Source: a virus (Duplodnaviria; Heunggongvirae; Uroviricota; Caudoviricetes). Taken from it: 41,828 nucleotides of DNA. The notes under the pieces are model-generated. The model did no database searches. It saw only the letters and a program-made list of their open reading frames with translations, and was not told the origin of the DNA. How positions within the stretch are numbered: the first letter of the stretch is position 1; each line of letters begins with the position of its first letter. The position numbers and the translations under genes were made by a program. Location of the stretch: IMG/VR virus record IMGVR_UViG_2541047798_000006; one strand, given 5' to 3'. Shown here in pieces: positions 2,815-27,735 of the stretch.

Positions 2815-3414
2815 TCAGAAACGGTATCCGATACCAACAATAAATGCATCCGTTCGCCAGTCGCCACTGCCGGAGCCTTCATAAGCAATATCAATGGCCA
2901 CGGATTCGGTCGGGTTAAACTGCACGCCAGCCCCCCACGCCAGAGACGTGTTGCTGTGGCGACCGTCATCACTTCCGGTCAGCACATCGTGCGTTTTCCC
3001 CGTATTGTCGGTCACCTGCAGATAATCCCCGGAGAAAGTCGACACACGGCTGTAAGCCACACCCGCCATCGCATACGCGCTGAACCATTCATTCACGCGC
3101 ACAGACGGCCCCGCCATCACGCTGAACCAGCGGTTACGCACGGAATCTTCATGCCAGCGGGTATCGCTGTAATGCGTTTTTTGCTCATCTTCAGCGTTGG
3201 CATAACTGAATGACGTAATCAGCCCCAGCGTGTCCGTAAACTCATAACGGTATTTCACGTTAATCCCGTTCAGATTATCGCTGCCGGGAGCGTTCGTACG
3301 GGCATGAAGATACCCTGCGCTCAGTGTGGCCTGCTGCTCAGACGCCCATGCAGGCGCACCGGATACGGCCAGACAGATGGCTGCGGACAAAATGGCTGCA
3401 CAAACTTTACGCAT
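2815..3414 (-). CDS. lom: Lom outer membrane protein (Ail/Lom family)
   Basis: 199 aa; signal peptide; ...[24 protein letters not shown]-terminus as in lambda Lom. Confidence 0.9.
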
Positions 3415-3435
3415 AATTACCTCTCGCTTTTCTGC

Positions 3436-3462
3436 AATAAAAAAGGCACCATTTCTGGTGCC
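3436..3462 (-). terminator. candidate intrinsic terminator after J
   Basis: - strand ggcacc-agaaat-ggtgcc followed by T6, between J stop and lom start. Confidence 0.5.
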
Positions 3463-3481
3463 CGTATCTGGGTTATAAAAT

Positions 3482-6400
3482 TCAGCTAATCGTGATGCCT
3501 GTAGTGGCTTTCTTCATCACCACAACCAGCAAATCGCTGATACTTGCTGTGGGATACCAGTTATTTACCAGCCATGCTGACACCGAAAACTCCAGTGTCA
3601 TGTGACCGTGACCGGCAGGCATATCAATAACGCCACTGTAAATCAGCGTATTATCCAGCGCGGTACGGTTATAAATTTCAGCACCGTTTTTCCGCACTAT
3701 CAGACGGCATGAGGAGTAAATATCAGTATGCTCTTTCTCATGTTTAGCGCCGCTGAATGCCACCGCCGGAATAACAATCTGCCGGTCAAACGGCTGATCG
3801 TCATAAACCCTGACGGTAATGGTTCCTGATGGCCACCGCTCCGGTGCACGGGAGTCCCGGGGGAAAGCTTTGCCCACTGTTTTAACGAGATCGCCTTCAA
3901 TCTGGTTCGCGGACAATTTTCCCAGAACCCGACAGTTCTCGTTAATCGTGACGTTGTTGAGCGTCCCGGAGTTCGCATTCACGTTACCGCTGATATCGGC
4001 ATTTTTCGCCGTCAGCCGCCCGTCCGGTGTCAGGGAAAATGCCGGAGGATTACCGCCGCTGGTAATGGTGGGGGCCGTCAGGCGTTTCAGGAACACTTCA
4101 TTCATGAATATCTGATCGCCCTGACCAACAAACATCGGCTTTGTGTTGCCATTCGCAGGATTAATCATCGCAATCCTGTCTGCTGCCAGCAGCACCTGAC
4201 TCTGCATGCCGTCAGGGGTGTTCTCAATACCGGCACCGATACCCGCAATATAAAGGCGTCCGTCCTGCATCTGCTGCAGCTTCACTGCCCACATGCTGTT
4301 CAGGTTATTATTTGTATCAACCTGAACCTTCTGTATCTGCTGGATCGCTGCACTCTGGTCTTCCAGTTTCTTATTGACGGTCTGTGTTATTTCATTGCTG
4401 ACATCCGTTATGGACGTCCTGATTTCAGTCAGGTCAGGCGCAAGCTGACCGTTATCAATCTGCGTCCACAGCTCCTGAGCCAGATGGGTTTTCCCTATCT
4501 CGCCTTTGAAAAAATCCAGATAGCCTGATGCATCATCACTCGGCTGACCGACAGCCTCCACGAATGCCGATTTGCCAACGGTGTTCACACTGCGAACGTA
4601 AAAATAATAATCATGGCCCGGTTTGATATTGATACTGGCGGCTATCCAGTACAGTGCCGTACCAAGATAACGCGCGCTGGTTTCAACCTGCCTGATATCC
4701 GCAATCCGTTTTTCCGAGAACCAGAACTCAAACTGTACCGTCGGATCATAAACCGCAAGATGCGGCGTGGCGGTTATCTGAAAATAGCCCGGCGTCAGCT
4801 CAATCCGCGACGGTGCTGCCGGTGCGGCAATCCGGAATGATACCGACGCCGGATCACCCTGCTGCCCCCAGGCATTTACCGCCCTGACTGTCAGCCTGTA
4901 GTTTCCCAGCGCCAGTTGCCTGAAGCGGTATGTGGTTTCCGTCGTCCGGGCCGTGCTGACCAGCCGCTCACTGCCGTCATCCGCTGCCACGGTCAGGCGA
5001 AGCATAAAGCTCACCCCCTTCACCACCTTCGGCGTATCCCAGCGCGCCAGCACCTGGTATTCCCCGCTGTCTGCGGTGACTTCTGCGGTCAGGTGCTGCA
5101 CTGCTGGCGGCGTGACACCGTTCACCGTTCCGCTCTGGTCGCCGTCAAAGTGCGCCCCGTTATCCACGATGGCTTCTTTCTCCGGCACATGCTGCACGGC
5201 AGTGATGGCATACGTGCCGTCATCGTTCTCACGGATACTCACACAGCGGAACAGGCGCTGGCGCAGCGTCGGCAGCTTCAGCCCCCATACGCTGTATTCG
5301 GCAACACCGTCAGGAACACGGCTCACTTTTACCTTCACGCCGTCGGTGACGGACTGAACCTCCACGCTGACCGGATTGCCACTTCCGTCAACCAGGCTTA
5401 TCAGCGTGGTACCGGAGGATGGCAGCGTGATTTCACGGTCGAGCGTCAGTGTCCGCGTCTGGCTGTTCACCGCCAGCACGCGCCCGCCGATGCTGATACC
5501 CGCATAGTCATCATCACAGATTTCAATGACATCGCCCGGTACATGGCGAAGCCCTTCTGCACCCACGCTGAAGTCCACGGTCTGCGTTTCCAGCAGCTCC
5601 GTTTTAATCAGCCACAGCCCGGCGCGGTGTGCCTGCCCCCGGCTGGTACAGCCAAAGGCATCCATCTTCGTGACGTTACGACCGTAACGGAGAATGGCCT
5701 GCGTATCTTCAACAAGCTCTGTCGCCGTCTCCCAGCCGTTATTCGGGTCAATCCAGTTCACCTCAACGGCATTATGGCGGTCCTTCAGGGCGCTGAAGCT
5801 GTAGCGGAACGGCGCGCCATCATCCGGCATCACCACATTACTGCGGTTATAGGTCCACACCTTATCCGACGGTCGGTCCTGCACGAACGTCAGCGTCTGC
5901 CCGTTCCATACCGGCATACAGCGCATCGCCGAGCAGAAATCACTGAGAACATCCCACGCCTTACGCTGTGTGGTCAGGTAGGCATTACAGGTGATGCGCG
6001 GCTCCGTGCCACCAAAGCCATCCGGCACTGACTGATCGCAATACTGGCCGATGACATACAGCGCCCATTTGTCCACATCCGCCGCACCAAGACGTTTCCC
6101 CATGCCGTAGCGCGGGTGGGTCAGCATATCCCACAGACACCAGGCCATGTTGTTGCTGTATGCCGGTTTAAACGTCCCGTCCCAGATACCGCTGTATTGC
6201 CGCGTCTGCGGGTTATAGTTCGATGGCACCTGCAGAATGCGCCCGCGAAGATGATAATTACGGCTCACCTGCTGGCTGCCGAACTGTTCCGAGTCCACCT
6301 GCACGCCGACCAGTGCCGTGTTCGGGTAGCACTGTTTCACATCGATGATTTCAGTGTATGACGACCAGAGCGTTTTGTTCTGCAGCTGGTCTGTGGTGCT

Positions 6401-6961
6401 GTCCGGCGTCATCCTGCGCATCCGGATATTGAACGGTCGCGGCGGCAGGTTATCCACCACCACCGAGGCCAGATACTGCGACGTGGTTTTGCCCTTAATG
6501 GTGATGTCTTTTTCCGTCACCCAGCCACCGTTACGTTGTATCTGAACCAGCAGGCGGACTTCCGACGGATTCCGGTCACCCTTTGAGGTGGTTTCCACCA
6601 GTGCCTGCACACCGAAGGTAAAGCGCAGACGGTCGATGTTTGCAGACGTGATGGTCCGGGTGATCGGCGTGTCGTATTTCACTTCCGTACCCAGCACCGT
6701 CTCGGAACCGGAGGATTCAAATCCCTCCGGCGGTGTCTGCTCCTGCTCACCTGCCCGGAACACCACCGTGACACCGGAGATGTTGGTATTCCCCTCACTG
6801 TCCAGCACCGGTGTACTGTTCAGCAGCACGCTTTTTAATCCATCCACCGGACCTTCAACCGGCCCTTCGCTGATGGCATCGATCACACTCAGCAACTGCG
6901 TGGACTTCAGGTTGTCCTTCGCTTCGCGCGGGGTATGCCCCTTACTGCTTCCTTTACCCAT
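3482..6961 (-). CDS. J: central tail fibre / host specificity protein J
   Basis: 1159 aa; C-terminus ...[42 protein letters not shown] matches the lambda J LamB-binding end from memory. Confidence 0.95.
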
Positions 6962-7021
6962 TCCTCACGCTCCATAAATGACAAAACCGCCCGCAGGCGG
7001 TTTCACATAAAACATTTTGCA

Positions 7022-7693
7022 TCAGCGACCAATCACCACAACCTGACCACCGTCCCCTTCGTCTGCCGTGCTGATCTCCTGAGAAACCACGCGTGACCCC
7101 ACGCGCATTTCCCCGTACAGAACAGGCAGAACATTGCCCTGGGCAACCATGTTATCCAGTGAGGAGAAATAGGTGTTCTGCTTACCGTTATCCGTTGTCT
7201 GTGTACGGGGAGTTCTGGCTTTCGGTGCCAGCATCTGCGCCACACCACCGAGCACCATACTGGCACCGAGAGAAAACAGGATGCCGGTCATACCACCGGC
7301 CCCAATGGCTGCCCCCCATGCTGCAAGGGTGGCTCCGGCGGTAAAGAATGATCCGGCAATGGCGGCAGCCCCCAGGACAATCTGGAATACGCCACCTGAC
7401 TTGGCCCCGGCGACTCTGGGAACAATATGAATCACAGCGCCATCAGGCAGAGTCTCATGTAACTGCGCCGTTAACCCGGACGTGCTGACGTACCGCCCGG
7501 CAATCCGTACCTGATACCAGCCGTCGCTCAGTTTCTGACGAAACGCAGGGAGCTGTGTGGCCAGCGCCCGGATGGCTTCGGCCCCCGTTTTCACACGAAG
7601 GTCGATGCGGCGGCCAAATCGTTGTAAATCCCCGTAAAGGCAGATGCGTGCCATGCCCGGTGACGCCAGAGGGAGTGTGTGCGTCGCTGCCAT
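7022..7693 (-). CDS. I: tail assembly protein I
   Basis: 223 aa, MAATHTLPLASPGMARICLYGDLQRFG... Confidence 0.9.
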   Translation of the reverse strand: MAATHTLPLASPGMARICLYGDLQRFGRRIDLRVKTGAEAIRALATQLPAFRQKLSDGWYQVRIAGRYVSTSGLTAQLHETLPDGAVIHIVPRVAGAKSGGVFQIVLGAAAIAGSFFTAGATLAAWGAAIGAGGMTGILFSLGASMVLGGVAQMLAPKARTPRTQTTDNGKQNTYFSSLDNMVAQGNVLPVLYGEMRVGSRVVSQEISTADEGDGGQVVVIGR

Positions 7694-8334
7694 TTGTCGG
7701 TATACCTCTCTCGTTTGCTCAGTTGTTCAGGAATATGGTGCAGCAGCTCGCCGTCACCACAGTAAATGGCGGCATGATTCGGCACAGATGAACCAAAACA
7801 GCACAGCAGCACATCGCCCGGCTGCGCCGCTGACAGCGGCACCTGATACAGCCCTGCGGCCTCCAGATTATCCAGATAGAGATTCTGACCGTTACGCCAC
7901 CAGTCATCCTCACGATGAAAATCCGGCATCTCAATCCCCGCCAGATGGTAAGCATCCCGGAACAGCGTGTAACAGTCCGTCACCCCGTGCTCAAAGAGCC
8001 GCCCGGTGAGATGCGGCACACAGCGGAATTTATGAATCGCCCCCCGGCAGACCAGCCACCACGGCAAATCACTCTGCACCTGCAACCGCCGGTCGGCCTC
8101 ACTCAGCCAGGGCAGACCACCGGGATGGCTGTGCACCAGCGCCACAATCTCACCCTGCATTTCTGCCCGCAGCCAGTCCTCCGGCGACATCCGGAAATAC
8201 GCCTCCGGCTCACCGGAGATATTTACGCAGGGAAGATATCTGTCTCCCTCCGGCGTTCTCACCACAAAGCCGCACGACTCCGCTGGCGCACATCGCCGGG
8301 CGTGCGCCAGAATCGCTGATTCTGTCTCTGTCAT
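7591..8334 (-). CDS. K: tail assembly protein K (JAB/MPN plus NlpC/P60-like)
   Basis: 247-aa ORF, HSHPGG motif; 3' end overlaps I by about 100 nt. Confidence 0.85.
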   Translation of the reverse strand: MTETESAILAHARRCAPAESCGFVVRTPEGDRYLPCVNISGEPEAYFRMSPEDWLRAEMQGEIVALVHSHPGGLPWLSEADRRLQVQSDLPWWLVCRGAIHKFRCVPHLTGRLFEHGVTDCYTLFRDAYHLAGIEMPDFHREDDWWRNGQNLYLDNLEAAGLYQVPLSAAQPGDVLLCCFGSSVPNHAAIYCGDGELLHHIPEQLSKRERYTDKWQRRTHSLWRHRAWHASAFTGIYNDLAAASTFV

Positions 8335-8339
8335 GGGAT

Positions 8340-9038
8340 TTACTGCGAAAGTTTGTCAATGGAAAGGAAGCCGCCAAAGTTGCCGACGTTATTGCGAAAC
8401 TTACAGCCACTCAGGCATTTGCTGCATTTATCCTTCGTGATATCGGTTGTCGGCTGGTCATATTCATCCGCGACAGCCGGACCGTGATAACCGCACTCAT
8501 CACCGCGATAGGTCCAGGTGCAGGTGTTGGCCAGCATGATACGTCCCGGAAAAACAGCGCCATCCGTTTCCGTCGGCGTGGACAGTACAAAGGAGGCACT
8601 GACCGCGCTCAGTTCGCTGCACTGCTCGATGCGCCAGCGGCTGATCACCTCCTGCTCCGGATCGGCGTCGCTGTTTCCGTTGACGAAGTTCACCGCATCC
8701 AGAAAACGGGCATAAACCTTACGCCTGACCACCGTTCCGCCGACCAGACTCTGCAGGTCTTCCGCCATCCCGGTGACCATACCGTACAGGTTAGAAACCG
8801 TCAGCGTGGGGCGCGTACTGGTACCTTTGCCATTCAGTTCGAAACCACTCCCCTGAATGGGATACGCCTGATACTGTCGCCCCTGCCAGGTGACCGGCTC
8901 ACCTTTTTCGTTCTGCTCATTACAGAAAAAATAACGTTCTCCACCAACCTCTGTCAGATCGATTTCCCAGAGCACCACGCAGGCAGACTGCTCCGCACGG
9001 GTGCATTCATTCAGTGTTTCCTGTCGGATATCCTGCAT
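8340..9038 (-). CDS. L: tail tip protein L
   Basis: 232 aa, lambda L-like. Confidence 0.9.
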   Translation of the reverse strand: MQDIRQETLNECTRAEQSACVVLWEIDLTEVGGERYFFCNEQNEKGEPVTWQGRQYQAYPIQGSGFELNGKGTSTRPTLTVSNLYGMVTGMAEDLQSLVGGTVVRRKVYARFLDAVNFVNGNSDADPEQEVISRWRIEQCSELSAVSASFVLSTPTETDGAVFPGRIMLANTCTWTYRGDECGYHGPAVADEYDQPTTDITKDKCSKCLSGCKFRNNVGNFGGFLSIDKLSQ

Positions 9039-9367
9039 CAGTTCACCACCTGTTCAAACTCTGCGCTGAACTCAACACGCAACATACTGACCCGCGACGA
9101 CCATTTTGCGCAGGTCACCTTTATCTGCCGCCAGTCATAAGGCGGCGTCCACAGAAAGGCTTTCCAGCCTCCGTGCTCTGCCAGAAACGATTCCAACGCC
9201 GTGGCCTCCCAACGGGGGACAGAAATCGTCACGCTGTACGTTTTCAGGTTGGCATTCAGCCCGGCAGGCGCGCGCTGGGAATAGCCATCACCAAAGCGCA
9301 CCTTCCTGACGGAAGGAGCCGAAGCCACATCCATACCGGGTTTCACTTTCCAGCGGAAGGTTTTCAT
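9038..9367 (-). CDS. M: tail tip protein M
   Basis: 109 aa, lambda M-like. Confidence 0.9.
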   Translation of the reverse strand: MKTFRWKVKPGMDVASAPSVRKVRFGDGYSQRAPAGLNANLKTYSVTISVPRWEATALESFLAEHGGWKAFLWTPPYDWRQIKVTCAKWSSRVSMLRVEFSAEFEQVVN

Positions 9368-11863
9368 CGTCCACCTCCGGAGAACAGACCACCATCACGC
9401 ATCTGCCCGGTCACAACATCCATTGCCGCCTTGCGGGCCATGTCATACACTGCCTTCAGCATCTGTGGACCTGGCAGACCATTCGTGCCGTCGTTATTAA
9501 TCACCACATGGTTATTCTGCTCAAACTTCCCGGACGCCTGCGACCGGCTGTCCGCCAGGCTGCCCGGTGTACCGACATAACCACCGGTGGCATAGCCGCG
9601 CATCAGCCGGTAGAGATTCCCCACGCCAATCCGGCTGGTTGCCTCCTTCGTGAAGACAAATTCACCACGGTGAACAATCCCCGCTGGCTCATATTTGCCG
9701 CCGGTTCCCGTAAATCCCCCTGTCGCAAAATGGAATTTCGCCGCAGCTGCCTGAATGGCTGTACCGCCTGACGCGGATGCGCCGCCACCAACAGCACCGC
9801 CAATGGCGCTGCCGATACTCCCGACAATCCCCACCATTGCCTGCTTAAGCAGAATTTCTGTCATCATGGACAGCACGGATCGGGTGAAGCTGCGCCAGTT
9901 TTGTTCACTGCCGGTCAGCATCGCCGCCATATTCTGTGCAATACCATCAAAGGTCTGCGTGGCTGCACTTTTAACCTGCGACATACTGTCCGTGGCGCTC
10001 TCTTCCCACTCACTCCAGCCTGACTTGAGGCCTGCCATCCAGCTCCCGCGAAGCTGGTCTTCAGCTGCCCAGGTCTTTTTCTGCTCTGACATGACGTTAT
10101 TCAGCGCCAGCGGATTATCGCCATACTGTTCCTTCAGACGCTGTTCCGTGGCGTCCCGCGCTGCCTGCCGGTCAGTCAGCCCCCGGTTTTTCGCATCAAT
10201 GGCTGCCCGTTTTGCCCGTTGTTGCTGTGCGAATTTATCCGCCTGCTGCGCCAGCGCATTCAGGTGCTCCTGATACGTGACCTTATCGCCAAGTGCAGCC
10301 AGCTGGCGTTTGTACTCCAGCGTCTCGTCTTTATGCGCCAGCAGGGATTTCTCCTGTGCGGACAGCTGGCGACGTTGTGCCGCCTCCTCCAGTACCGCGA
10401 ACTGACTTTCTGCCTTCCACAAATCCCGGCGCTGCTGGCTGATTTTCTCATTCGCTGTCTTCCTGACGATCGCCCGCAGACACCTTCACGCCGGACTGTT
10501 TCGGCTTTTTCAGCGTCGCTTCATAATCCTTTTTCGCCGCCGCCATCAGCGTGTTGTAATCTGCCTGCAGGATTTTCCCGTCTTTCAGTGCCTTGTTCAG
10601 TTCTTCCTGACGGGCGGTATATTTCTCCAGCGGCGTCTGCAGCCGTTCGTAAGCCTTCTGCGCCTCTTCGGTATATTTCAGCCGTGACGCTTCGGTATCG
10701 CTCTGCTGCTGCGCATTTTTGTCCTGTTGACTCTGCTGTTCAGCCTTCTTTCGGGCGGCTTCAAGCGCAAGACGGGCCTTTTCACGATCATCCCAGTAAC
10801 GCGCCCGCGCTTCATCGTTAACAAAATAATCATCCTTGCGCAGATTCCAGATGTCGTCCGCTTTCTTAAACGCAGCCTCTGCCTTAATCAGCATCTCCTG
10901 AGCGGTATCAGGACGACCAATATCCAGCACCGCATCCCACATGGATTTGAATGCCCGTGCTGTCCTGTCTGCCCAGGTTTCCAGCGTGCCCATGTTCTCT
11001 TTCAGGCGTCGGGTCTGGTCATCAAACCCTTTCGTTGCGGCCTCGTTCGCCGCCTGCAATGCCCCGGCTTCATCGCCGGAACGCTGCAACTGAGCAACAT
11101 ACGCAATCTGCTCCGCCGTCACGTTATGGAACTGGCGCGCCATCGCCGTCAGCCCCGACGTCGGGTCAGTGGTCAGCTTCCCGAAGGCTTCAGCGACCTT
11201 GTCCACCTCCACACCGGATGCAGAGGAGAAACGCGCCACACTCTGGCTGATGGACGCAATCTGAGCCTCACCGCTTACCCCCGCCTTAACCAGTGCACTG
11301 AGTGACTCGCTGGTCTGGTTAAACGTCAGCCCTGCAGCCTGCCCGGCTCTGGACAGGACCAGCATACGATCTGCCGTCAGTCCCGCCTGATTACCGGAAA
11401 GGACCAGCGTTTTGTTGAAATCGGACAGGGTTGAGTTACCCTGATACCAGGCATACGCCAGCGCACCGGTCGCCACCGCCAGCGAGGTGGCCCCGACCAT
11501 CGGCAGGGTGATCGCACCGGCAAGCCCCCGGAACATGGGGATCATCCCGCCGAAGGAGTCCTTAACCTGACCACCCTGTTGCAGCAGGATCAGCCACGGG
11601 CTTTGCCCGCCTGCAAGCTGCGTGGCCACGTCGGTGAACTGTGCAGGCAGCATACGCATGGCGGCTTTATACTGCCCGACGGAAATCCCCGCTTTCTGTG
11701 CAGCCAGCGCCTGTCGGCTCAGCGACTGTTCAACGACTGCCGCTGTTTTTTTCGCATCACTTTCCGTACCGGAAAAATGACGCCTGACTCTGGCCATCTG
11801 CTCGTCAAATCTGGCCGCATCCAGACTTAAATCAACGACCAGATCGCCTACCGGTTCAGCCAT
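9364..11863 (-). pseudogene. H: tail tape measure protein H, split into two reading frames
   Basis: N-terminal piece 10448..11863 (471 aa, ends TGA at 10448) and C-terminal piece 9364..10422 (352 aa, TTG-initiated in the ORF track) are both lambda-H-like but in different frames; the second frame is open upstream to 10485. Confidence 0.7.
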
Positions 11864-12297
11864 ACCGGACTCCTCCTGCGATCCCTTCTGATACTGTCAT
11901 CAGCATTACGTCATCCTCCGTCATGCCCGCCATATCCGGGGAAGCGGGGATAACTTCATTTCCGTCCGGGTCAAAGCGGACGCCTCCGGTAAGCCCTGCC
12001 GCTTTCTGCATCAGCACATCATCTTCAGGCTCTTCGTCATCCTCACGCCGGTTCAGCAAACTGAAATCCAGCGGATGCATATCCGGATCGCTGAAAAACA
12101 GGCTGAGCACAGTGTACGTCAGCCCGGAAAAGTGCATATCCAGCAGAACATCATGAAAATAATGGGTACTGTAAAAGCGGTGCCAGTCGGCATACTCCGT
12201 GGATGACATCCCGGCAAGCATGGCGCGCCAGTCAGGTCGCCCCATCTCTCGCGCCAGTTTCAGGGCAAAACTCAGCTCACCGTCGAACACTTTCCCG
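11856..12297 (-). CDS. T: T segment of the G-T tail assembly chaperone fusion (made by -1 frameshift from G)
   Basis: -1 frame ORF overlapping the G 3' end; slippery heptamer present. Confidence 0.75.
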
Positions 12298-12694
12298 CAG
12301 AAACAGGCTCTGCAGGCCCGGCGTCCTCTGTCTGGTCAGGGGCATCATTCACCACAAACTCATACATTCCGGACAGCCGGTACACCACGTTTTCAGCATG
12401 AGAAATTGCCTCTGTAGGCCAGGTGGTAAGCACTTCCTGCTCAATCTGTTTAACGGCTTCATTCATGGACGGCATCTGCGTCTTCTTCGGATGGTTATGC
12501 CACAGGGACATCGCCACCACAAAAGCGCCGGTTCTGATGGCGTCTTCCACAGTAAACTTCCGGTTGCTGTCTGACTCCGCCTGTTCTGCCTGCCGTTTCA
12601 TCAGGGCGAGATGCTCAATACGCTGTAGGGCTGACAGTTCAGAAAGCGTGACGGTCACGCCGTTATGTTCAAATGATTCGGTTTTCAGGAACAT
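12272..12694 (-). CDS. G: tail assembly chaperone G
   Basis: 140 aa MFLKTESFEHNGVTVTLSELSALQRIEHL... Confidence 0.9.
   Translation of the reverse strand: MFLKTESFEHNGVTVTLSELSALQRIEHLALMKRQAEQAESDSNRKFTVEDAIRTGAFVVAMSLWHNHPKKTQMPSMNEAVKQIEQEVLTTWPTEAISHAENVVYRLSGMYEFVVNDAPDQTEDAGPAEPVSAGKCSTVS
12291..12297 (-). other. programmed -1 ribosomal frameshift slippery site G GGA AAG
   Basis: + strand ctttccc at 12290-12296, read as GGGAAAG on the - strand near the end of G. Confidence 0.7.
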
Positions 12695-12709
12695 CGCTGA
12701 CTCTCCGGA

Positions 12710-13450
12710 TTAACTGGCGGTGACGGTGATTTCTGCAACCGCAGCAAACTCACCATTACCGGATACGACCGGAATGTTGACCTTGCCTGCAGCAACGCCG
12801 TTCACGGTGATGGTCATACCACTGACCGACACGGTGGCTTTTGTTTTATCCGCAGACACCGCACGGAAGCTCTTGTCGGTTGCGCCTTCCGGCTGGAATG
12901 CCACGGTCAGCGTGGTGCTCTGCCCTTTCACTACGGAAGCACTGGCTGGCGTTACCGTCATGCCGGTGGCCGCCGTCACCGTGCTGCGATCTTCTGCCAT
13001 CGACGGGCGTCCCACATTGGTGACCTTCACCGTGCGGGTAATCACTTCCTTCGCCGTCACCGCCTTACCGATACTGCTGACCCAGCCACGGAACACATCG
13101 ACCGTGCCGTTCGGGAAGCGGATTTTATAGGCACGGGTATCACCTTCATTAAACCACGCCAGCAGCGCCTGCTGCCCCTGCTCTCCGGGCATCCACGCCA
13201 GCGTGAAGCTGGTATCTCCGGCTGACTTCTGCCCCTGTCCGGTCGCGGTCCAGTCCGCATCTTCATCATCGAGATAACTGTCGTCATAGGACTCAGCGGT
13301 CAGTTCGCCGGGCGTCAGGTCTTTAACTTTAGCCAGACGCGACCAGTCAACGTCTGAAAGCGGGTTCGCATAAGGGTCACCGTTCCCCTTATAAACCCAC
13401 AGTGTGGTCCCGGCACCTTTCACCGGCATTGTTGGATTTGGTACAGGCAT
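12710..13450 (-). CDS. V: major tail tube protein V
   Basis: lambda V-like; start placed at [14 protein letters not shown] rather than the extended ORF start. Confidence 0.9.
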
Positions 13451-13457
13451 AGCGTCC

Positions 13458-13853
13458 TCACATTTCATAGGTAATGACATAAGTCAGATCGGCTGAACTC
13501 CACAGGCCCGCATCATCGTCGCGCCGGTAGTCATAGCCACTGGCCACCATACTGGTGATCAAATCTGACAGTGCCGGGATATCGCTCATCACCGGATAAA
13601 TCCGGGACTCCATCCACGAATCCAGCTCTGAATCCGGCACCTGAGCAGGCAGGAAAACTTCAATATGCAGCTCCGCCTGCCAGGTATCGCTGTCCAGCTC
13701 TTCGCCCGTGTATTCAGCGCCGGTGAGATAAACGGCAATTGCCGGAAAATCCGCCTCATCAAAAACAGCGGGGCGACCATCAAAAAGCGTCGCCCCGGTG
13801 TCATGCTTCTCCAGTGCATCCAGTACGGCTGCACGGAGTTCAGTATGTTTCAT
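13458..13853 (-). CDS. U: tail tube terminator protein U
   Basis: 131 aa lambda U-like. Confidence 0.9.
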
Positions 13854-14428
13854 CGCTTTATTACCATTCTCAGTTGATGCTGCAGCGCATAGCCCAGCTC
13901 TTTCGGAAGACGTTCACGCCGTATCCGTTCAATATTCTGTTTAAACGCCGTGGTAAGCGGCACCGCCATCGGGATTTTCACCACATCAATGGGGTAACGG
14001 TTTTTCCCGGCCACACGCTGCATGACATGCCACCGCCCATTTTTCAGTTGCTGAATAAACGCGCCGGGAATACGACGGTTACCCACCACAAGCACGCTGC
14101 CGCCACCTTTCAGGGATGAACGCTGCCCCTTTTTACGACGCCTGCGGCGGGACAGGACAACCCGCGCATTACCCAGCTTGATTACGGGCAAATCCCCCCG
14201 GTTAACTTTGATTCTGGCCTGCGGATTTTTGACCGTGGCCCTTTTCAGCCTGGCCCTTTCCTTTACCAGTTTCCGGCGTACCTTTGTCTCACGGGCAACC
14301 TGTGACGCAGACTGCGATATCACGGATGAAGCAACGCGGTTAATGGCCATTGCGGCGGCACCAGGCACCGCCGTTTTGCTGATACGGCTGAGGTTTTCAA
14401 CGGCCTGCTCAAGACCTTTTATGGCCAT
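13850..14428 (-). CDS. Z: tail completion protein Z
   Basis: 192 aa lambda Z-like. Confidence 0.9.
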   Translation of the reverse strand: MAIKGLEQAVENLSRISKTAVPGAAAMAINRVASSVISQSASQVARETKVRRKLVKERARLKRATVKNPQARIKVNRGDLPVIKLGNARVVLSRRRRRKKGQRSSLKGGGSVLVVGNRRIPGAFIQQLKNGRWHVMQRVAGKNRYPIDVVKIPMAVPLTTAFKQNIERIRRERLPKELGYALQHQLRMVIKR

Positions 14429-14439
14429 ACATCCCCCTT

Positions 14440-14793
14440 TCAGCGGCGACGGTTAACGGCAGGCGGTACGCCCCGCCCAAGCCAGAGATGACAGCTTCCA
14501 CCATCATCCGGCGAAACCCGGTCTATCCAGAAGTTTTCCTCACCGATGGTCAGCGTGTCTCCACGCCGCAGCTGCCGCACATCATCAGTCCGGACAAACA
14601 GGGACGGGCTGGAGCCTTCAACGCGCACGCCCTGTCCGGCATAGCTGATATTTTCAGGGTCATCAAAAACACCACGTATTACTGCGCCGGACTGCTCACC
14701 GGATGTCATGGTGGCTGACGTTCCCATGTACCCGCGTATCGTTTCATCGGCGCGGACAATGGCAGCATCGAACAGGTTATCGAAATCAGCCAC
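14440..14793 (-). CDS. FII: head-tail joining protein FII
   Basis: 117 aa lambda FII-like. Confidence 0.9.
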   Translation of the reverse strand: MADFDNLFDAAIVRADETIRGYMGTSATMTSGEQSGAVIRGVFDDPENISYAGQGVRVEGSSPSLFVRTDDVRQLRRGDTLTIGEENFWIDRVSPDDGGSCHLWLGRGVPPAVNRRR

Positions 14794-14804
14794 AGCGCCT
14801 CCCG

Positions 14805-15200
14805 TTATTGCATTCTGGCCAGGCCGCGCTCTGTCATTTCGGCTGCCACACCGGCAGAGACACGAAACGCCGTTCCCGGCAGCACAAATGCCACAGGTTC
14901 ATCCCGCGTGGCGTGAAGTGCATCGGTATGCAGCGTCACCAGTGCCACAACCGTGACCAGAACAGCCGTATCAGTCACGGTATCCGTCTGTGCTGATACC
15001 ACCTCATTTTCATGTCCGGTCAGCGCATTTTCCGGGCTGACAGACGTGTCCTGACCGGCTCCGTCATCCTTGTCATCAAGCTCCTCTTCCAGCTCTGCCA
15101 CACGGAGCGCCAGTTCTTCTTTCGTCCCCGTCAGGCTGACATCACGGTTCAGTTGCTCACCCAGCGACCGGAGACGGGCAATCAGTTCATCTTTCGTCAT
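14805..15200 (-). CDS. FI: DNA packaging protein FI
   Basis: MTKDELIARLRSLGEQLNRDV...; start trimmed to the ATG at 15200. Confidence 0.85.
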   Translation of the reverse strand: MTKDELIARLRSLGEQLNRDVSLTGTKEELALRVAELEEELDDKDDGAGQDTSVSPENALTGHENEVVSAQTDTVTDTAVLVTVVALVTLHTDALHATRDEPVAFVLPGTAFRVSAGVAAEMTERGLARMQ

Positions 15201-15241
15201 GGACTCCTCCACAGAGAGAAAATGGCCCCGAAGGGCCATGA

Positions 15242-16267
15242 TTACGCCAGTTGAACGGACACGAACTCATCAGGATCAGCCAGCAGCATCAGCGGTGCTG
15301 ACTGAATCATGGTGAACTCACGCGCCGGATCGCCGCTGGTCACCCAGTTTTTCGGGTAGCGGGCAGAAGCGTTAATACCTTCGCGCTGTGCGTCCGCATC
15401 CTGAATGCAGCCATAGGTGCGCAGACCGCGAGCCTGAGTGTTCCCCAGCACCATCGTGTTGTCCGGCAGAAAGTTCTTTTTGACGCCGTTTTCCACGTAC
15501 TGTCCGGAATACACGACGATGGCCACATCGCCATACATCCCCTTATAGGACACCGCTTTGCCCAGGTCTTTCACCGCTGTCTCCAGCTCGGAATGAGAGC
15601 CGCGACGGGTATCCAGCTTCTCCCTGACGGCTTTGAAGGAACGGAACAGCGCCCAGCCTTTCGGATCAAAAACGATAATATTCACCACACCGCTGGCGTT
15701 CAGCGCGTAGGCTTCGATATCGTCGGTCGGGTCATACGTGGACTTGTCGCGCTTGCTCCACTCCGTGCTGCCGGACTGCGTGATGTTATTCGCTTCACTG
15801 CGACCCATATCCACCTCAACCGGATCGAAGGCTTCACCGGTCATGGTGTATTTGCCCTTAAGCACGGCAGAAACGGCCTGCATCTCTTCGACCTGAGCAA
15901 TGGCCAGCTCTTCGTCTCGCATGTTCTGCATGATGATGCGACGGCGGCGGTAAGCCGGGTCCGCCAGATTCTTCGGATCTTCATCCGGCAGGCGACGCAG
16001 GGTCATCTGCGGATTCACCTCATGCTTGGGCTTGACATATCCCGGTGTAAATTCAGAGGTGGAGCCGCCACGGGAGCGGATAACCTCACCGGAAACAATC
16101 GGCGAAACGTACAGCGCCATGTTTACCAGTCCCGGAATTTGTGAGAGATAGACTTTCTCCGTGGTGAAGGGATAGCTCTCACGGAAAAAGAGACGCAGAA
16201 ACAGCGGATCAAACTTAAATTTCTGCTCATTTGCCGCCAGCAGTTGGGCGGTTGTGTACATCGACAT
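15242..16267 (-). CDS. E: major capsid protein E
   Basis: 341 aa lambda E-like. Confidence 0.95.
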   Translation of the reverse strand: MSMYTTAQLLAANEQKFKFDPLFLRLFFRESYPFTTEKVYLSQIPGLVNMALYVSPIVSGEVIRSRGGSTSEFTPGYVKPKHEVNPQMTLRRLPDEDPKNLADPAYRRRRIIMQNMRDEELAIAQVEEMQAVSAVLKGKYTMTGEAFDPVEVDMGRSEANNITQSGSTEWSKRDKSTYDPTDDIEAYALNASGVVNIIVFDPKGWALFRSFKAVREKLDTRRGSHSELETAVKDLGKAVSYKGMYGDVAIVVYSGQYVENGVKKNFLPDNTMVLGNTQARGLRTYGCIQDADAQREGINASARYPKNWVTSGDPAREFTMIQSAPLMLLADPDEFVSVQLA

Positions 16268-16274
16268 AAAAAAT

Positions 16275-16303
16275 CCCGTAAAAAAAGCCGCACATGCGGC
16301 CTT
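16275..16303 (-). terminator. stem-loop plus T-run between D and E (possible attenuator)
   Basis: - strand gccgca-tg-tgcggc followed by T7. Confidence 0.4.
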
Positions 16304-16321
16304 TAGTGATGAAGGGTCAGG

Positions 16322-16654
16322 TTAAACGATGCTGATTGCCGTTCCGGCAAACGCGGTCCGTTTTTTCGTCTCGTCGCTGGCAGCCTCCGGCCAGAGCACA
16401 TCCTCATAACGGAACGTGCCGGACTTGTAGAACGTCAGCGTGTTGCTGGTCTGGTCAGCAGCAACCGCAAGAATGCCAACGGCAGCACCGTCGGTGGTGC
16501 CATCCCACGCAACCAGCTTACGGGTGGAGGTGTCCAGCATCAGCGGGGTCATTGCAGGCGCTTTCGCACTCAATCCGCCGGGCGCGGTTGCGGTATGAGC
16601 CGGGTCACTGTTGCCCAGCGGCTGGTAATGGGTAAAGGTTTCTTTGCTCGTCAT
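16322..16654 (-). CDS. D: capsid decoration protein D
   Basis: [12 protein letters not shown]...; start at second ATG with better SD spacing. Confidence 0.9.
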
Positions 16655-16663
16655 AAACATCCC

Positions 16664-17963
16664 TTACACTGGTGTGTTCAGCAAATCGTTAACGGCATCA
16701 GATGCCGGGTTACCTGCAGCCAGCGGTGCCGGTGCCCCCTGCATCAGACGATCCAGCGCAGTGTCACTGCGCGCCTGTGCACTCTGTGGTGCTGCGGCCA
16801 GAATGCGGCGGGCCGTTTCCACGGTCATACCGGGGATTTCGGCCAGCACGCGGGCCTGTTCTTCGCGTCCGTGAGCCTCCTCACAGTTGAGGATCCCCAT
16901 AATGCGGCTGTTTTCTGCCGCAACCGCAGCGGTGATCTGCGCGTTCACGTCCGGCTGCGCCGCGCTGGCGTTTTCGCCCTCCGTCGCTGGCACCACGTCA
17001 GTAACGTCAGCCTGCGAAGCAGTGGCTGAAACAGTTGTTGATTGAGTCTCTTTGGTCATTCGCCCTCCTGAGAGACGGGATTTACGTGCATCCAGTGCAT
17101 CACGCATAACGGTGATCGCATCGGTGCTGTTGACAAGTTCATCAGCCAGTCCGGCATCAATGGCCTCCTGACCGCTGTACACTGCAGCCTCGGTATCCAG
17201 CACAGCCTGCACGGACAGGCCGATATATGCCGACACCTTCTGCGCAAACATCTGGCGGGTTGCATCCATCCGGGACTGCAGTGTCTCCCGGACGTCATCC
17301 GGAAGATGGCTGTAGGGGTTGCCATCCACCTTATGGCTGCCGCTGTAAATCAGCGTGATTTCCACGCCCTGTTTCTCCAGCGCAGCACCGTAATTACTGT
17401 GAGCCATCATGACGCCGATGGAGCCTGTCCGGGCGGTCTGCGTGACCAGACGCCGGGAGGCGGCGCTGGCAAGCAGCTGCCCTGCACTGCAGTTCATGTC
17501 ATTGGCCAGCGCCCATACCGGCTTTATGTCACGCACACGGGCGATGATGTCAGCGCAGTCAAATGCCCCTGCCACCATCCCGCCTGGCGTATCCATATCG
17601 AGCAGAATGCCGTCCACCATCGGGTCGCTGGCAGCCTGTTGCAGACGGGCGATAATGCCGTTGTAACCGGTCATCCCCGAATACGGCTGCAGCGCTCGCG
17701 TCCGGCTGACCAGCGTACCGGACACCGGCAGCACGGCGATGCCGTTCATGACCTGATAATTGCGGGCCTGTCGTGGTCCGTCATCATCACCGGATAACGC
17801 CAGCGCCGCGGGTGCCTCTCCGGCAGTCAGGCTGTCGCCGGACACCGCATCCGTCAGGCGACTGATCCCAAGCTGGCCTGCAAGCGCACAAAAGAAAACC
17901 CGCGCATAGGCGGGTTCAAGCATCAGCGGCTCATTAAAAGCCATGCTGGCAATATGCGGGAGA

Positions 17964-17983
<20 letters not shown>
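16664..17983 (-). CDS. C: capsid assembly protease C (scaffold Nu3 nested in frame)
   Basis: GTG start after GGAGGAG SD; MTAELRNLPHIASMAFNEPLMLEP... Confidence 0.85.
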
Positions 17984-21664
<3,681 letters not shown>

Positions 21665-21690
<26 letters not shown>

Positions 21691-22210
21691 TCAGCAACCC
21701 CGGTATCAGTTCATCCAGCGCGGCTGCTTTGTTCATGGCTTTGATGATATCCCGTTTCAGGAAATCAACATGTCGGTTTTCCAGTTCCGGAAAACGCCGC
21801 TGCACCGACAGGGGGATCCCGTCGAGAATACTGGCAATTTCACCTGCGATCCGCGACAGCACGAAAGTACAGAATGCGGTTTCCACCACTTCAGCGGAGT
21901 CTCTGGCATTCTTCAGTTCCTGTGCGTCGGCCTGCGCACGCGTAAGTCGATGGCGTTCGTACTCAATAGTTCCTGGCTGGAGATCTGCCTCGCTGGCCTG
22001 CCGCAGTTCTTCAACCTCCCGGCGCAGCTTTTCGTTCTCAATTTCAGCATCCCTTTCGGCATACCATTTTATGACGGCGGCAGAGTCATAAAGCACCTCA
22101 TTACCCTTGCCACCGCCTCGCAGAACGGGCATTCCCTGTTCCTGCCAGTTCTGAATGGTACGGATACTCGCACCGAAAATGTCAGCCAGCTGCTTTTTGT
22201 TGACTTCCAT
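21665..22210 (-). CDS. nu1: terminase small subunit Nu1
   Basis: 181 aa MEVNKKQLADIFGASIRTIQNWQEQGMPVLRGGGKGNEV... Confidence 0.95.
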
Positions 22211-22432
22211 TGTTCATTCCACGGACAAAAACAGAGAAAGGAAACGACAGAGGCCAAAAAGCTCGCTTTCAGCACCTGTCGTTTCCTTTCTTTTCAGAGG
22301 GTATTTTAAATAAAAACATTAAGTTATGACGAAGAAGAACGGAAACGCCTTAAACCGGGAATTTTTCATAAATAGCGAAAACCCGCGAGGTCGCCGCCCC
22401 GTAACCTGTCGGATCACCGGAAAGGACCCGTA
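22211..22432 (-). other. cos region (cosB, cosN, lambda right-end junction)
   Basis: + strand aggtcgccgccc at 22388-22399 is the reverse complement of the lambda 12-nt cohesive end GGGCGGCGACCT, followed by the reverse complement of the lambda right-end sequence. Confidence 0.85.
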
Positions 22433-23607: not shown

Positions 23608-24072
23608 TTATCTGAGGCATTGCTCTCGAATGTATAGCTGTGCCCCTTCAAGTTGTTTTTGCATTATTATCAGTCGCGCTCTGAGGGTGAAATAATCCCG
23701 TTCAGCGGTGTCTGCCAGTCGGGGGGAGGCTGCATTATCCACGCCGGAGGCGGTGGTGGCTTCACGCACTGACTGACAGACTGCTTTGATGTGCAACCGA
23801 CGACGACCAGCGGCAACATCATCACGCAGAGCATCATTTTCAGCTTTCGCATCAGCTAACTCCTTCGTGTATTTTGCATCGAGCGCAGCAACATCACGCT
23901 GACGCATCTGCATGTCAGTAATTGCCGCGTTCGCCAGCTTCAGTTCTCTGACATTTTTGTCGCGCTGGGCTTTGTAGGTAATGGCGTTATCACGGTAATG
24001 ATTCAGCCACAGACTAAGCGCACCACAGGCCACCAGCAGGGCAATGATGACCACGCACAGTACGCGGTTCAT
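23608..24072 (-). CDS. Rz: i-spanin Rz
   Basis: 154 aa ...[45 protein letters not shown]... Confidence 0.95.
23670..23852 (-). CDS. Rz1: o-spanin Rz1 lipoprotein, embedded in Rz
   Basis: 60 aa, lipobox VVGC, proline-rich. Confidence 0.85.
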
Positions 24073-24073
24073 T

Positions 24074-24172
24074 TCACCACCAGCGTATCTGACCGATGAA
24101 ATAACCGGAGGCCATAATCACAAACACCAGCCAGATAAGAATGAACTTCCAGGTGGATAATTTTTCAGCCAT
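24074..24172 (-). CDS. candidate 32-aa single-pass membrane peptide translationally coupled to Rz
   Basis: ATG at 24172 preceded by GGGAG SD; [32 protein letters not shown]; TGA one nt before the Rz ATG; not in the ORF track (<60 aa). Confidence 0.3.
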
Positions 24173-24247
24173 CACTCGAATCTCCCGAATCAGTTTGCTA
24201 AAATCAAACACACTTTCTCCTTTGACTTTTCCGGAGTCAGGAAACAC

Positions 24248-24280
24248 AAAACCCCGCTTGGTGCCAACAAACGGGGTTTT
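24248..24280. other. strong stem-loop in R–Rz spacer
   Basis: aaaaccccg ... cggggtttt 9-bp perfect stem, 15-nt loop. Confidence 0.5.
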
Positions 24281-24370: not shown

Positions 24371-24904
24371 TTATCTGTCGATACCCCAGCACGCCAGCGC
24401 GCTCTCCTGGTCACGACGGGATACCTGACCGTAGCAGTTGTTTGAACGAATACGGCAGTCTCTGCCACCGTCCTTAATCCACCAGCGAATCGCCTCACAC
24501 GCTCCCCTGCGATCACCTGCATTAATTCGTTTGTAAAACGTCGACGGGAAACACTTACCGGGACCAATGTTGTACGGACAGAATGACGCGATCCCCGCTT
24601 TCTGGGGTTCGCTCAATGGCACTTTGATGTTTTTCTCCACCCATGCCAGCGCCTTATCACGCTCAATGGCGTTGACCTGGTCGCATTTTTCCTTCGACAG
24701 TTTCATACCGGGAAAAACGGGTTTTCCATCCACCATCGTGGCCCCCCGACAGATGGTCCAGTTGCCGGAACCATCGCGGTATGCCGTTGTGTGGTTACCC
24801 TCTTTTTCGTCCAGAAACTGGTCAAGTATCTGAGGAGCAGACGCGCCTGCAGCAATCAGCGCCAGAACAGCAGCTGACAGGCCGTATTTGATTTTTACGC
24901 TCAT
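24371..24904 (-). CDS. R: phage lysozyme (GH24, T4-lysozyme fold) with N-terminal signal/SAR-like hydrophobic segment
   Basis: E-x8-D-x5-T catalytic spacing in EGNHTTAYRDGSGNWTI; N-terminal YGLSAAVLALIAAGASAP. Confidence 0.85.
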   Translation of the reverse strand: MSVKIKYGLSAAVLALIAAGASAPQILDQFLDEKEGNHTTAYRDGSGNWTICRGATMVDGKPVFPGMKLSKEKCDQVNAIERDKALAWVEKNIKVPLSEPQKAGIASFCPYNIGPGKCFPSTFYKRINAGDRRGACEAIRWWIKDGGRDCRIRSNNCYGQVSRRDQESALACWGIDR

Positions 24905-24997
24905 GGATATTTATCAGGATGCTACCAATGAAAGATACTGGAAAGCCAACTGCAAAAAGCTAACAACCTGTAATCGAGTTATCAGAACTGTTAATTT

Positions 24998-25258
24998 TTA
25001 TGGTATACCGCGCCTCTGAACAGGGGCGCGTTTCTGGCAACAGCTCGTCCCCTTCACATAACCCGGCAGCAACATCCAGGAAGACCTGGCTGCTGCCTCA
25101 TAAAACTCCAGCGCGGCACCTTCAACACGGTCCAGCGAGATGTCCAGGTCAAAAATTTCACCGTCAAAGCGTTTTTTGTCCCGTAACGCTAAAGTTACCG
25201 TAACTTTATTCTCAAAATTGCGGATCCCTTTCACAATCAGTTCATAGTTTTGAGTCAT
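24998..25258 (-). CDS. small protein between holin and endolysin (possibly YdfR/DUF1327-like, maybe C-terminally altered)
   Basis: 86 aa MTQNYELIVKGIRNFENKVTVTLALRDKKRFDGEIFDLD...; GGAG SD directly after the S stop; family from memory. Confidence 0.45.
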   Translation of the reverse strand: MTQNYELIVKGIRNFENKVTVTLALRDKKRFDGEIFDLDISLDRVEGAALEFYEAAARSSWMLLPGYVKGTSCCQKRAPVQRRGIP

Positions 25259-25262
25259 TGAA

Positions 25263-25478
25263 TTACTCTCCCCGTGCCGCCTTACGACGGTCCTCTCTGA
25301 TTTTGAAATACAGGTTAGTCAGATATGTCAGCAGCCCAAACAGCAGACTCCCCAGCACGCCTATTGCCGCCCACTGAGACGGGGAAACCCTGTCCAGCAA
25401 CTGCAGGAACCAGTAGCCCGTTCCCACCGCTGACGTAGTGTATGACACACCTGTTGTGATTTTTTCCATCTGGTCCAT
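25263..25478 (-). CDS. S: pinholin, phage 21 S-type, dual-start
   Basis: 71 aa [71 protein letters not shown]; two Met codons at positions 1 and 4; GGGAG SD. Confidence 0.85.
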
Positions 25479-25785
25479 ACCCCGTCTCCCGTTATCCGGA
25501 AGCTGACAACAATAAAAAAGCCACCAGTTAACTACTGATGGCTCTGATAACTCATGCAAGCGTCTCAGACGATCCACTGACACTATCGGTGAGTTTAACG
25601 ATACCTTCCATTTGACTGGCTCACTTTTTATGATGATGCCGGTGCATTTATCTCCAGCACCAGACTTTCTATCTCAACGCCATACGTTGCATTTTTGGTA
25701 ATATCCGTCAGCGTCAGTGCATTTAGTCCCACTGCCAGACTGTCTTTTATGGCCTGGAATGCCGGGCCAGTACGATGACGTAGTA

Positions 25786-25989
25786 TCACTCCGGCTCAGT
25801 TGCACCGCTGACCACCACATCACCTTCTGCTGCAATCGCCTGCATCAGGGTATAAGGGGTTATGGCCACCGGACTACCAAACGGCTGCCAGCCCTCTTTC
25901 AGTTTATGTGTCAGCTTTTCCGCAAGATCTGACGGCGGCGCCGCCCTGACAACATCATAGTGTTTAAATGCCATGGTTCTTTCCACCAT
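25786..25989 (-). CDS. small hypothetical protein upstream of lysis cassette (possibly DUF1737-like)
   Basis: 67-aa ORF ...MAFKHYDVVRAAPPSDLAEKLTHKLKEGWQPFGSPVAITPYTLMQAIAAEG... Confidence 0.45.
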   Translation of the reverse strand: MVERTMAFKHYDVVRAAPPSDLAEKLTHKLKEGWQPFGSPVAITPYTLMQAIAAEGDVVVSGATEPE

Positions 25990-26234: not shown

Positions 26235-26570
26235 ATGAAGTGGATTGTGATTGATACAGTTATCCAGCCATCATGCGGAATATCTTTTTCAGTCATATGG
26301 AGTAAAATAAAATTAATAATCTGGTATCAATCGGATGCTTTCTTACCTCCTGAAAGTATATTTACACTGACTCACACAGGCATCATGCTCAATAACAAAG
26401 TGCTGCCTGTAACCATTTACAACGTAGTACCATTCAATAAAACATTCTGGAATTTAATCAAAAACAGCCAGGAATGCCCTACAAATACAGATAACGTATT
26501 GAATGAATGCTTTAATAACCGTTGCACTCTGCAAATATGTCCTTATGGACTAAAACAACAAAGTCCATAA
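26235..26570 (+). CDS. hypothetical AT-rich cargo protein, Cys-rich C-terminus
   Basis: 111 aa, AAGGAAAG SD 4 nt upstream of the ATG; opposite strand to late transcription; very low GC. Confidence 0.5.
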
Positions 26571-27481: not shown

Positions 27482-27558
27482 TGGCGCGCTGTACTGGATT
27501 CGAACCAGTGACCGATTGCTTAGAAGGCAATTGCTCTGTCCGGCTGAGCTAACAACGC
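27482..27558 (-). tRNA. tRNA-Arg (anticodon UCU)
   Basis: 77 nt; acceptor GCGTTGT/ACAGCGC, T-loop GGTTCGAATCC, anticodon loop CTTCTAA, 3' GCCA. Confidence 0.85.
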
Positions 27559-27659: not shown

Positions 27660-27735
27660 TGGTGGCCCTTGCTGGATTTGAACCAGCGACCTGGCGATTA
27701 TGAGTCGCTCGCTCTCACCACTGAGCTAAAGGGCC
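27660..27735 (-). tRNA. tRNA-Ile2-like (anticodon CAU; could be read as Met)
   Basis: 76 nt; closely resembles E. coli ileX from memory; anticodon loop CTCATAA. Confidence 0.85.

Follow-up and report, generated by a model that had tools for sequence, protein, structure and literature searches.

The window analysed here, a 41,828-nt stretch of viral DNA (IMG/VR record IMGVR_UViG_2541047798_000006), carried on its minus strand a late-operon lysis cassette that we assign, with a probability of about 0.88, to a defective E. coli lambdoid prophage of the Qin/933W type. Between its holin and lysozyme genes lay a copy of ydfR in which a 16-bp deletion has shifted the reading frame. The gene identities, this frameshift, the mosaic boundaries of the cassette and its prevalence were demonstrated here. 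The sequence and its program-made list of ORFs gave five minus-strand ORFs, in transcription order of 71, 86, 177, 45 and 154 aa. These and the other features of the region were as follows (window coordinates, with the basis of each in brackets).

25517..25545, minus strand: terminator-like hairpin, ~38 nt upstream of the holin start (consensus scan)
25263..25478, minus strand: class II (phage 21 S family) holin, 71 aa (PF04971, hydropathy, 933W S)
25266..25273, minus strand: Shine-Dalgarno sequence GGGGAGAG, inside the last holin codons (comparison of the window and 933W junctions)
24998..25258, minus strand: ydfR (DUF1327) pseudogene, 86 aa (PF07041, alignment to the intact allele, RefSeq flag)
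24905..24997, minus strand: non-coding spacer of 93 nt, from the stop codon of the frameshifted ydfR to the lysozyme start (sequence)
24371..24904, minus strand: GH24 lysozyme of the Qin RrrQ/933W R type, 177 aa (PF00959, matches to R21 and RrrD, 933W R)
24833..24886, minus strand: predicted signal-arrest-release (SAR) domain, lysozyme residues 7-24 (hydropathy, composition)
24248..24280, minus strand: terminator-like hairpin with a 13-pair stem, downstream of the lysozyme gene (consensus scan)
24074..24211, minus strand: 45-aa single-TMD ORF abutting the Rz start (RefSeq CDS, hydropathy, phrog_6632)
23608..24072, minus strand: Rz i-spanin, 154 aa (PF03245, 1.4e-52)
23670..23852, minus strand: Rz1 o-spanin lipoprotein, 60 aa, lying within Rz in a different frame (PF06085, 5.4e-20)

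The first three ORFs lay where a sequence-only reading of this DNA had placed them, and each had a Pfam match. The holin matched PF04971, “Bacteriophage P21 holin S” (9e-33, 112.5 bits against a cut-off of 26, profile positions 1–63 of 64), and the lysozyme matched PF00959 (4.1e-24, 85.7 bits). The 86-aa ORF, whose likeness to YdfR/DUF1327 that reading had noted and proposed to check by an HMM search, matched PF07041 (DUF1327) at 5.7e-30 and 103.8 bits against a cut-off of 25, over profile positions 1–60 of 93 only. The ORFs were thus not chance ones, judging from the strong homologues of every gene. With a P21 S family holin and a lysozyme resembling 933W R, the proposal of a pinholin and SAR endolysin, rather than a lambda S/R pair, was supported.

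The 1.3-kb lysis region was 100% identical to several E. coli chromosomes. One of these belonged to strain AR_0017, from which the whole window differed at 159 positions, indicating a close relative. The AR_0017 record was annotated with a complete lambdoid prophage layout, integrase through tail fibres, and with several broken genes: the tape-measure gene was frameshifted, dicB was truncated, a DUF1737 gene was partial and a DUF1327 gene was described as “incomplete, missing C-terminus”. Of 5,426 complete E. coli genomes, about 1,900 contained the holin-ydfR-lysozyme layout (at least 80% coverage). This arrangement is already known, already annotated (RefSeq names at near-identical loci were “YdfR family protein” and rrrQ) and discussed in the Stx-phage literature; 99% of Stx phages have been predicted to encode a pinholin and a SAR endolysin (Pinto et al. 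2021, PMC8136144).

On comparison with lambda by blastn, window positions 4465..22399 corresponded to lambda 18002..1 at 95–98% identity, spanning head and tail genes, and the cos junction fell at 22399/22400. A further match joined 23617..24008 to lambda Rz (94% DNA identity); the Rz and Rz1 proteins were 86% and 97% identical to those of lambda. These two had the character of an embedded two-component spanin, the Rz TMD reaching a Kyte-Doolittle value of 2.95 and Rz1 containing the sequence LVVVGC. As the lambda match stopped at ~24008, the joint was located ~60 nt inside the 5′ end of Rz. From this joint to upstream of S the DNA is, by its sequence, of the Qin/933W type, and S and R of the window gave no BLASTP match to lambda S and R at E<=10. 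The lambda-like head and tail module and the mosaic joint postulated from the sequence were therefore both confirmed. The 45-aa ORF next to Rz belonged to phrog_6632 (1.2e-29), a family without assigned function, and had no Pfam match.

The upstream hairpin fell within a stretch common to 933W (93% DNA match, beginning at 25547) and would presumably be read through under Q antitermination. The consensus scan detected no hairpin within S-ydfR-R, between this one and that downstream of the lysozyme gene; two bracketing hairpins with none internal fit a Q-antiterminated late operon. The 86-aa ORF did have a Shine-Dalgarno sequence of its own, as had been proposed: comparison of the junctions placed GGGGAGAG, within the 3′ end of the holin gene, before ydfR in the window, and the same site directly before R in 933W. 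Reading the window sequence directly, no obvious Shine-Dalgarno sequence was seen upstream of the lysozyme ATG.

Identity of the holin was 97% to 933W S, 98.6% to the holins of many Stx2a phages and ~80% to an MKSM-type member matching S21. Its hydropathy profile contained a weak TMD1 (about residues 8–28) and a strong TMD2 (about residues 36–58); Kyte-Doolittle values exceeded 1.0 only at residues 31–60 (peak 1.99), residues 8–28 remaining below. Family membership and a weak hydrophobic segment followed by a strong one agreed with an S21-like pinholin. A canonical three-TMD holin, which the sequence-only reading had set against its own proposal, was not seen in these 71 aa, and their length alone excludes a class I holin with three TMDs. 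TMD2 contained G40, S44 and G48, presumably acting as a glycine zipper.

The dual start at Met1 and Met4 proposed for this holin was confirmed. Both methionines were present (N-terminus MDQM, the second in-frame start at 25467..25469), and the M-x-x-M pattern was kept across 120 holin homologues, but the long form began with MDQ and gained no basic residue. In phage 21 an added positive charge makes the long form, S21-71, an antiholin (PMC9636201); residues 2–3 of the window holin were Asp-Gln. Since MDQ adds no positive charge, the S21-71 antiholin logic need not apply to this holin, and control of lysis timing may, to judge from these residues, differ from that of phage 21. Among the homologues compared, the 933W subgroup started with MYQ (933W itself), MDQ or MNQ and other subgroups with MKS, MYR, MLR or MMK. 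In Stx phages sharing the 933W subgroup of holins without the antiholin charge, lysis timing, and hence toxin release, may depart from the textbook model.

Intact YdfR is predicted to be a small cytoplasmic protein of three beta strands and one long helix. In its AF2 model (pLDDT 79–94 over residues 1–70), strands were formed by residues 5–14, 18–27 and 34–43 and the helix by residues 50–72, with a disordered tail from residue 73. The protein had no transmembrane segment (maximum hydropathy 0.95). Foldseek found no match in BFVD at E<=0.001, and the fold searches with YdfR gave no convincing match and none pointing to a lysis function. Every PHROGs family matching YdfR was listed without an assigned function. 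The DUF1327 family was very small, comprising 260 clusters at 90% identity, and a profile search of 1.84 billion representatives returned 76 clusters, all of them DUF1327, with no link to a known family.

Intact ydfR was found in 101 of 50,697 phage records. The holin of this cassette was found in 427 phage records, of which the same 101 carried ydfR, and in all three loci inspected the intact gene directly followed an S21-type holin. Phages bearing it included the plaque-forming or inducible Perceval, PhiR47_1, H-19B and BP-4795 and many Stx1a phages. Because S directly precedes R in 933W and only this fraction of the holin-bearing records contained ydfR, the gene is optional: a moron-like accessory gene rather than a core lysis component. 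The more distant DUF1327 members were free-standing proteins of 72–76 aa, equal to the structured core. Some of their genes lay between tail genes M and L and another between I and J; some lay upstream of holins of other families, and one directly after an S21-type holin. A convergent gene of 70–100 aa accompanied six of the seven distant loci, and these partner genes were heterogeneous and unannotated. PADLOC gave no defence match for YdfR, the distant partner genes or the 45-aa ORF, the one match returned being insignificant (16.8 bits). From the varied contexts and the convergent partner gene, DUF1327 behaves as a mobile accessory (moron) module; given the DUF1327 genes adjoining holins of other families, a role linked to lysis is still conceivable.

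The one biochemical lead for DUF1327, a recent one, is the binding of RNase E. K-12 YdfR interacted in a two-hybrid assay with RNase E 1-597, its catalytic N-terminal half, and co-purified with RNase E 1-598; residues 1–72 of YdfR were sufficient for binding, the protein pulled down DNase-resistant nucleic acid, and RNA co-purified with it (PMC13232886). Over-expression of YdfR barely altered the transcriptome, and the interaction was defined by over-expression and two-hybrid data (PMC13232886). Because K-12 YdfR binds RNase E and RNA, an effect on the fate of late mRNA appeared likelier than an attack on membrane or murein. It is thus possible, though on the whole rather doubtful, that intact YdfR, encoded by the phage, modulates RNase E or binds RNA and so tunes the stability or translation of late or lysis transcripts and thereby lysis timing or burst size. 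If this were true, DUF1327 would represent a mobile moron of two genes that in its E. coli branch has settled between holin and endolysin, and the window would show only a decayed copy.

Could YdfR instead be a dedicated cytoplasmic regulator of lysis, either an antiholin like T4 RIII or a SAR-release factor like the Mu releasin, so that loss of ydfR in the window would alter lysis timing? The position of the gene speaks for this, since in the E. coli subfamily ydfR always lay between S and R, on the Shine-Dalgarno sequence used by R in 933W, and one distant homologue lay just upstream of another holin pair and a second directly after an S21-type holin. Other distant homologues, however, were in tail modules, and 933W and most phages with this holin lyse without ydfR. 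The Keio ydfR mutant was envelope-leaky in a CPRG screen (Paradis-Bleau 2014), but this phenotype could be polar on the downstream lysozyme gene. Taken with the lack of a transmembrane segment and of any fold match toward lysis, we regard a dedicated lysis regulator as unlikely, and DUF1327 as an accessory module that may act on RNA is preferred.

The hydrophobic N-terminus attributed to the GH24 lysozyme was also present, residues 7–27 having a Kyte-Doolittle value of about 1.7–1.8; for residues 7–24 it was about 1.7, against 2.95 for the Rz TMD. SAR segments have been described as 2–3 basic residues followed by ~18–20 weakly hydrophobic residues rich in Gly, Ala and Ser (Young laboratory, PMC9239132). 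The lysozyme fitted this description: after K4 and K6 came YGLSAAVLALIAAGASAP, an 18-residue segment with 11 small residues (7 Ala, 2 Gly, 2 Ser). The segment was conserved among 33 lysozyme homologues from many Enterobacteriaceae, as were, invariantly, eight cysteines. The catalytic triad E-X8-D-X5-T corresponded to E35, D44 and T50, invariant or nearly so among the homologues. A disulfide-caged endolysin of the P1 Lyz type, in which a Cys within the SAR segment isomerises with a caging disulfide, was rejected, since all cysteines of the 33 homologues lay at residue 52 or beyond.

With phmmer, lysozyme residues 12–174, and so the N-terminal segment too, aligned to R21 (3HDE, 1.5e-15) and to DLP12 RrrD (4ZPU). 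The AF2 model had a pLDDT of 79 overall and of 93–94 for residues 11–30; its TM score was 0.69–0.77 over 169–174 columns against full-length R21 (3hde), and its TMq was 0.52 against truncated R21 (3hdf). In the predicted fold the N-terminal segment is thus packed within the enzyme, as in full-length R21, which the model matched better than the truncated form. The lysozyme was 93% identical to 933W R, and the hydrophobic N-terminal segments were identical. 933W R, made as a construct that goes back to Kuty's 2011 thesis, has been listed and used in experiments as a SAR endolysin, and the Mu releasin makes its release more efficient (PMC9239132). By analogy with these proteins, SAR behaviour of the window lysozyme is very likely. 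At ~30% identity to R21, and with eight invariant Cys that R21 lacks, the lysozyme was placed in a Qin/933W subtype, and its activation step may, from these differences, not be that of R21.

A secreted enzyme with an ordinary cleavable Sec signal peptide was considered as well; its activity would have to be restrained otherwise, possibly by formation or isomerisation of four predicted disulfides, and the holin would then only depolarise the membrane. The N-terminus has an n-h-c layout with small residues at AGA/S and ASA/P (the slash marking the cut), AGA/SA being a formally possible cleavage site, and eight invariant Cys are expected of an oxidised periplasmic protein. Against this, Pro adjoined every AxA site in the family variants AGASAP, AGAPAS and GGAPAT of the 33 homologues, and at +1 or -2 it spoils most candidate cleavage sites family-wide; the hydrophobic segment was conserved and confidently placed in the fold by AF2, as in full-length R21; and the near-identical 933W R is treated as a SAR endolysin enhanced by the Mu releasin. 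A cleaved signal peptide is accordingly improbable, and the SAR endolysin is retained.

By homology to 933W and phage 21, a pinhole and SAR mechanism would be expected for this cassette, its steps being taken from the phage 21 paradigm. Upon Q antitermination the holin would build up in the inner membrane; TMD1, being weakly hydrophobic, would exit the bilayer, and TMD2 would oligomerise into small pinholes. Pinholes of this family would be ~2 nm wide and heptameric and would not release a cytoplasmic endolysin. The pinholes would collapse the proton-motive force, and the lysozyme, already exported by Sec and kept inactive by its N-terminal SAR segment, would on depolarisation be freed, refold and cleave murein. 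The Rz/Rz1 spanin would afterwards fuse the inner and outer membranes.

When aligned with a locus of 98% identity whose “YdfR family protein” is intact at 104 aa, the ydfR copy of the window lacked exactly 16 bp, CAGAAGGAGCATCAGA. The deletion was flanked by CAG microhomology and lay after codon 58, at ~25088/25089, so that codons 1–58 (25085..25258) were native and the next 28 out of frame. A frameshift at the C-terminus had been suspected from the sequence alone; it was real, but affected 28 residues, not about 25. The cut fell inside the sole helix of the YdfR model, leaving the window copy without an intact core of three strands and helix to about residue 72, and the lost segment held F65, V68, A69 and L72, invariant or nearly so in an alignment of 18 family members. 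As the deletion truncates this helix, the window copy was considered a pseudogene, and RefSeq gave the identical allele the same status. With a query spanning the junction, the deletion allele was detected in 9 of 5,426 complete E. coli genomes, the extra 16 bp being present in all others among the matches listed; the deletion is of recent origin and belongs to a small clade. The 86-aa ORF is very unlikely to be a functional shortened variant of YdfR: it keeps all three beta strands and nine residues at the start of the helix, residues 1–72 of the K-12 protein are enough to bind RNase E (PMC13232886) and the family has many length variants, but the native sequence already ends at residue 58, those four conserved residues and most of the sheet-packing helix are gone, the allele is rare (nine genomes), the prophage holds other broken genes, and RefSeq flags a pseudogene.

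The locus itself is of little importance, since cassettes of this type are on record from K-12 Qin, Stx phages and about one third of complete E. coli genomes; its one unusual element is the dead ydfR copy. The value lies at the level of the family, as DUF1327 sits in the lysis operon of ~100 sequenced phages, Shiga-toxin phages included.

Among named systems, small accessory proteins of lysis cassettes include the Mu gp25 releasin, which acts at the cytoplasmic side (PMC9239132), and T4 RIII, a cytoplasmic antiholin (PMC8385771). YdfR showed no sequence or fold similarity to either, and it lacks the TMD that gp25 has.

Lambda S105/S107 and the R transglycosylase occupy the same late-operon position as S and R of the window, but they represent another holin class and another enzyme type; Rz/Rz1, cos, head and tail of lambda were nearly identical to those of the window. 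The window holin shares with phage 21 S21 the Pfam family, the M-x-x-M dual start and the two-segment layout; the long form starts with MKS in phage 21 and with MDQ, which adds no positive charge, in the window. R21 (PDB 3HDE, 3HDF) and the window lysozyme have the E-X8-D-X5-T triad in common and agree in fold, N-terminal segment included, but R21 is only ~30% identical to the window lysozyme and is without its eight invariant Cys. Phage 21 is not known to carry ydfR.

The upstream hairpin and the Shine-Dalgarno sequence at the 3′ end of S are common to 933W and the window. In 933W there is no ydfR and R starts 4 nt after S, whereas the window has ydfR between them; DNA similarity between the two ended at the holin stop codon and resumed ~27 nt inside R. 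Between R and Rz, 933W carries ant, and in the window this slot is filled by the 45-aa membrane ORF. Phages Perceval, H-19B and BP-4795 and Stx1a phages also contain the trio in the same gene order. The essQ-ydfR-rrrQ genes of K-12 Qin likewise have the order of the window, with an S21-family holin, a 4-nt gap, ydfR, a spacer and a 177-aa lysozyme. The window differs from the Qin trio in two respects: its ydfR has lost 16 bp and is a pseudogene, and its cassette adjoins Rz/Rz1 genes and a head and tail module that are both of lambda type.

The three residues preceding Met4, the second in-frame start, set the holin subgroups when the window (25470..25478) was compared with 120 homologues (P0305-P0424). 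Starts MKS, MYR, MLR and MMK contained a basic residue, and MYQ, MDQ and MNQ, the group including the window holin and that of Stx phage 933W, contained none. Because the latter starts are without the basic residue that makes the long form (from Met1) an antiholin in phage 21, it is questionable whether the long form acts as an antiholin among the holins of Stx phages.

Eight cysteines of the lysozyme (24371..24904), C52, C74, C109, C118, C136, C150, C157 and C172, were invariant in all 33 homologues examined, and most of them were missing from R21, the SAR endolysin of phage 21. This pattern suggests that the periplasmic lysozyme has four disulfides and that its activation may involve a redox element.

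Distant homologues of the adjacent ydfR (DUF1327) pseudogene lay at four loci, each with a convergent partner:
L009 511..966, DUF1327 gene and partner
L010 449..1001, DUF1327 gene and partner
L011 4001..4506, DUF1327 gene and partner
L013 529..1070, DUF1327 gene and partner
The DUF1327 genes encoded 72-94 aa and the partners, of unknown function, 70-100 aa. The pair resembled a two-gene moron in its placement: some copies separated tail genes M and L or I and J, and others preceded holins of unrelated families.

The lambda cos junction was located at 22399/22400, where lambda position 1 adjoins position 48502. The window is thus colinear with a lambda-like late region that is integrated and circularly permuted, at a DNA identity of 97-98%. 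In the annotation, the early region is Rac-like, with xisR, kil, ydaT and a recE-like exonuclease. The tape-measure gene was broken:
9367..11863, minus strand, lambda H-like tape-measure gene, split across two reading frames near 10455
Matches to lambda H residues 1-470 and 491-853 were in different frames, and ~60 bp of lambda sequence was absent. Since this gene is split, the prophage probably cannot make tails.

Among and upstream of the lysis genes were the following features:
24074..24211, minus strand, 45-aa ORF with a single TMD, between lysozyme and Rz (phrog_6632, function listed as unknown)
25628..25989, minus strand, pair of short ORFs on the upstream side of the holin gene, both matching phrog_143
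26235..26570, plus strand, iraM anti-adapter gene, between the Q antiterminator and holin
27482..27558 and 27660..27735, minus strand, tRNA-Arg and tRNA-Ile genes, between Q and holin
The two short ORFs separately matched positions 1-58 (N-terminal) and 582-632 (C-terminal) of the 634-position phrog_143; the first was a DUF1737 protein with 44% identity to the start of the 933W NanS-p esterase. By these matches, the pair looks like what is left of a nanS-p-like gene after deletion of the central part. The 45-aa ORF, whose stop was one base from the Rz ATG, could be an additional lysis accessory; this slot is occupied by ant in 933W. The iraM, tRNA-Arg and tRNA-Ile genes lay where Stx phages carry stx.
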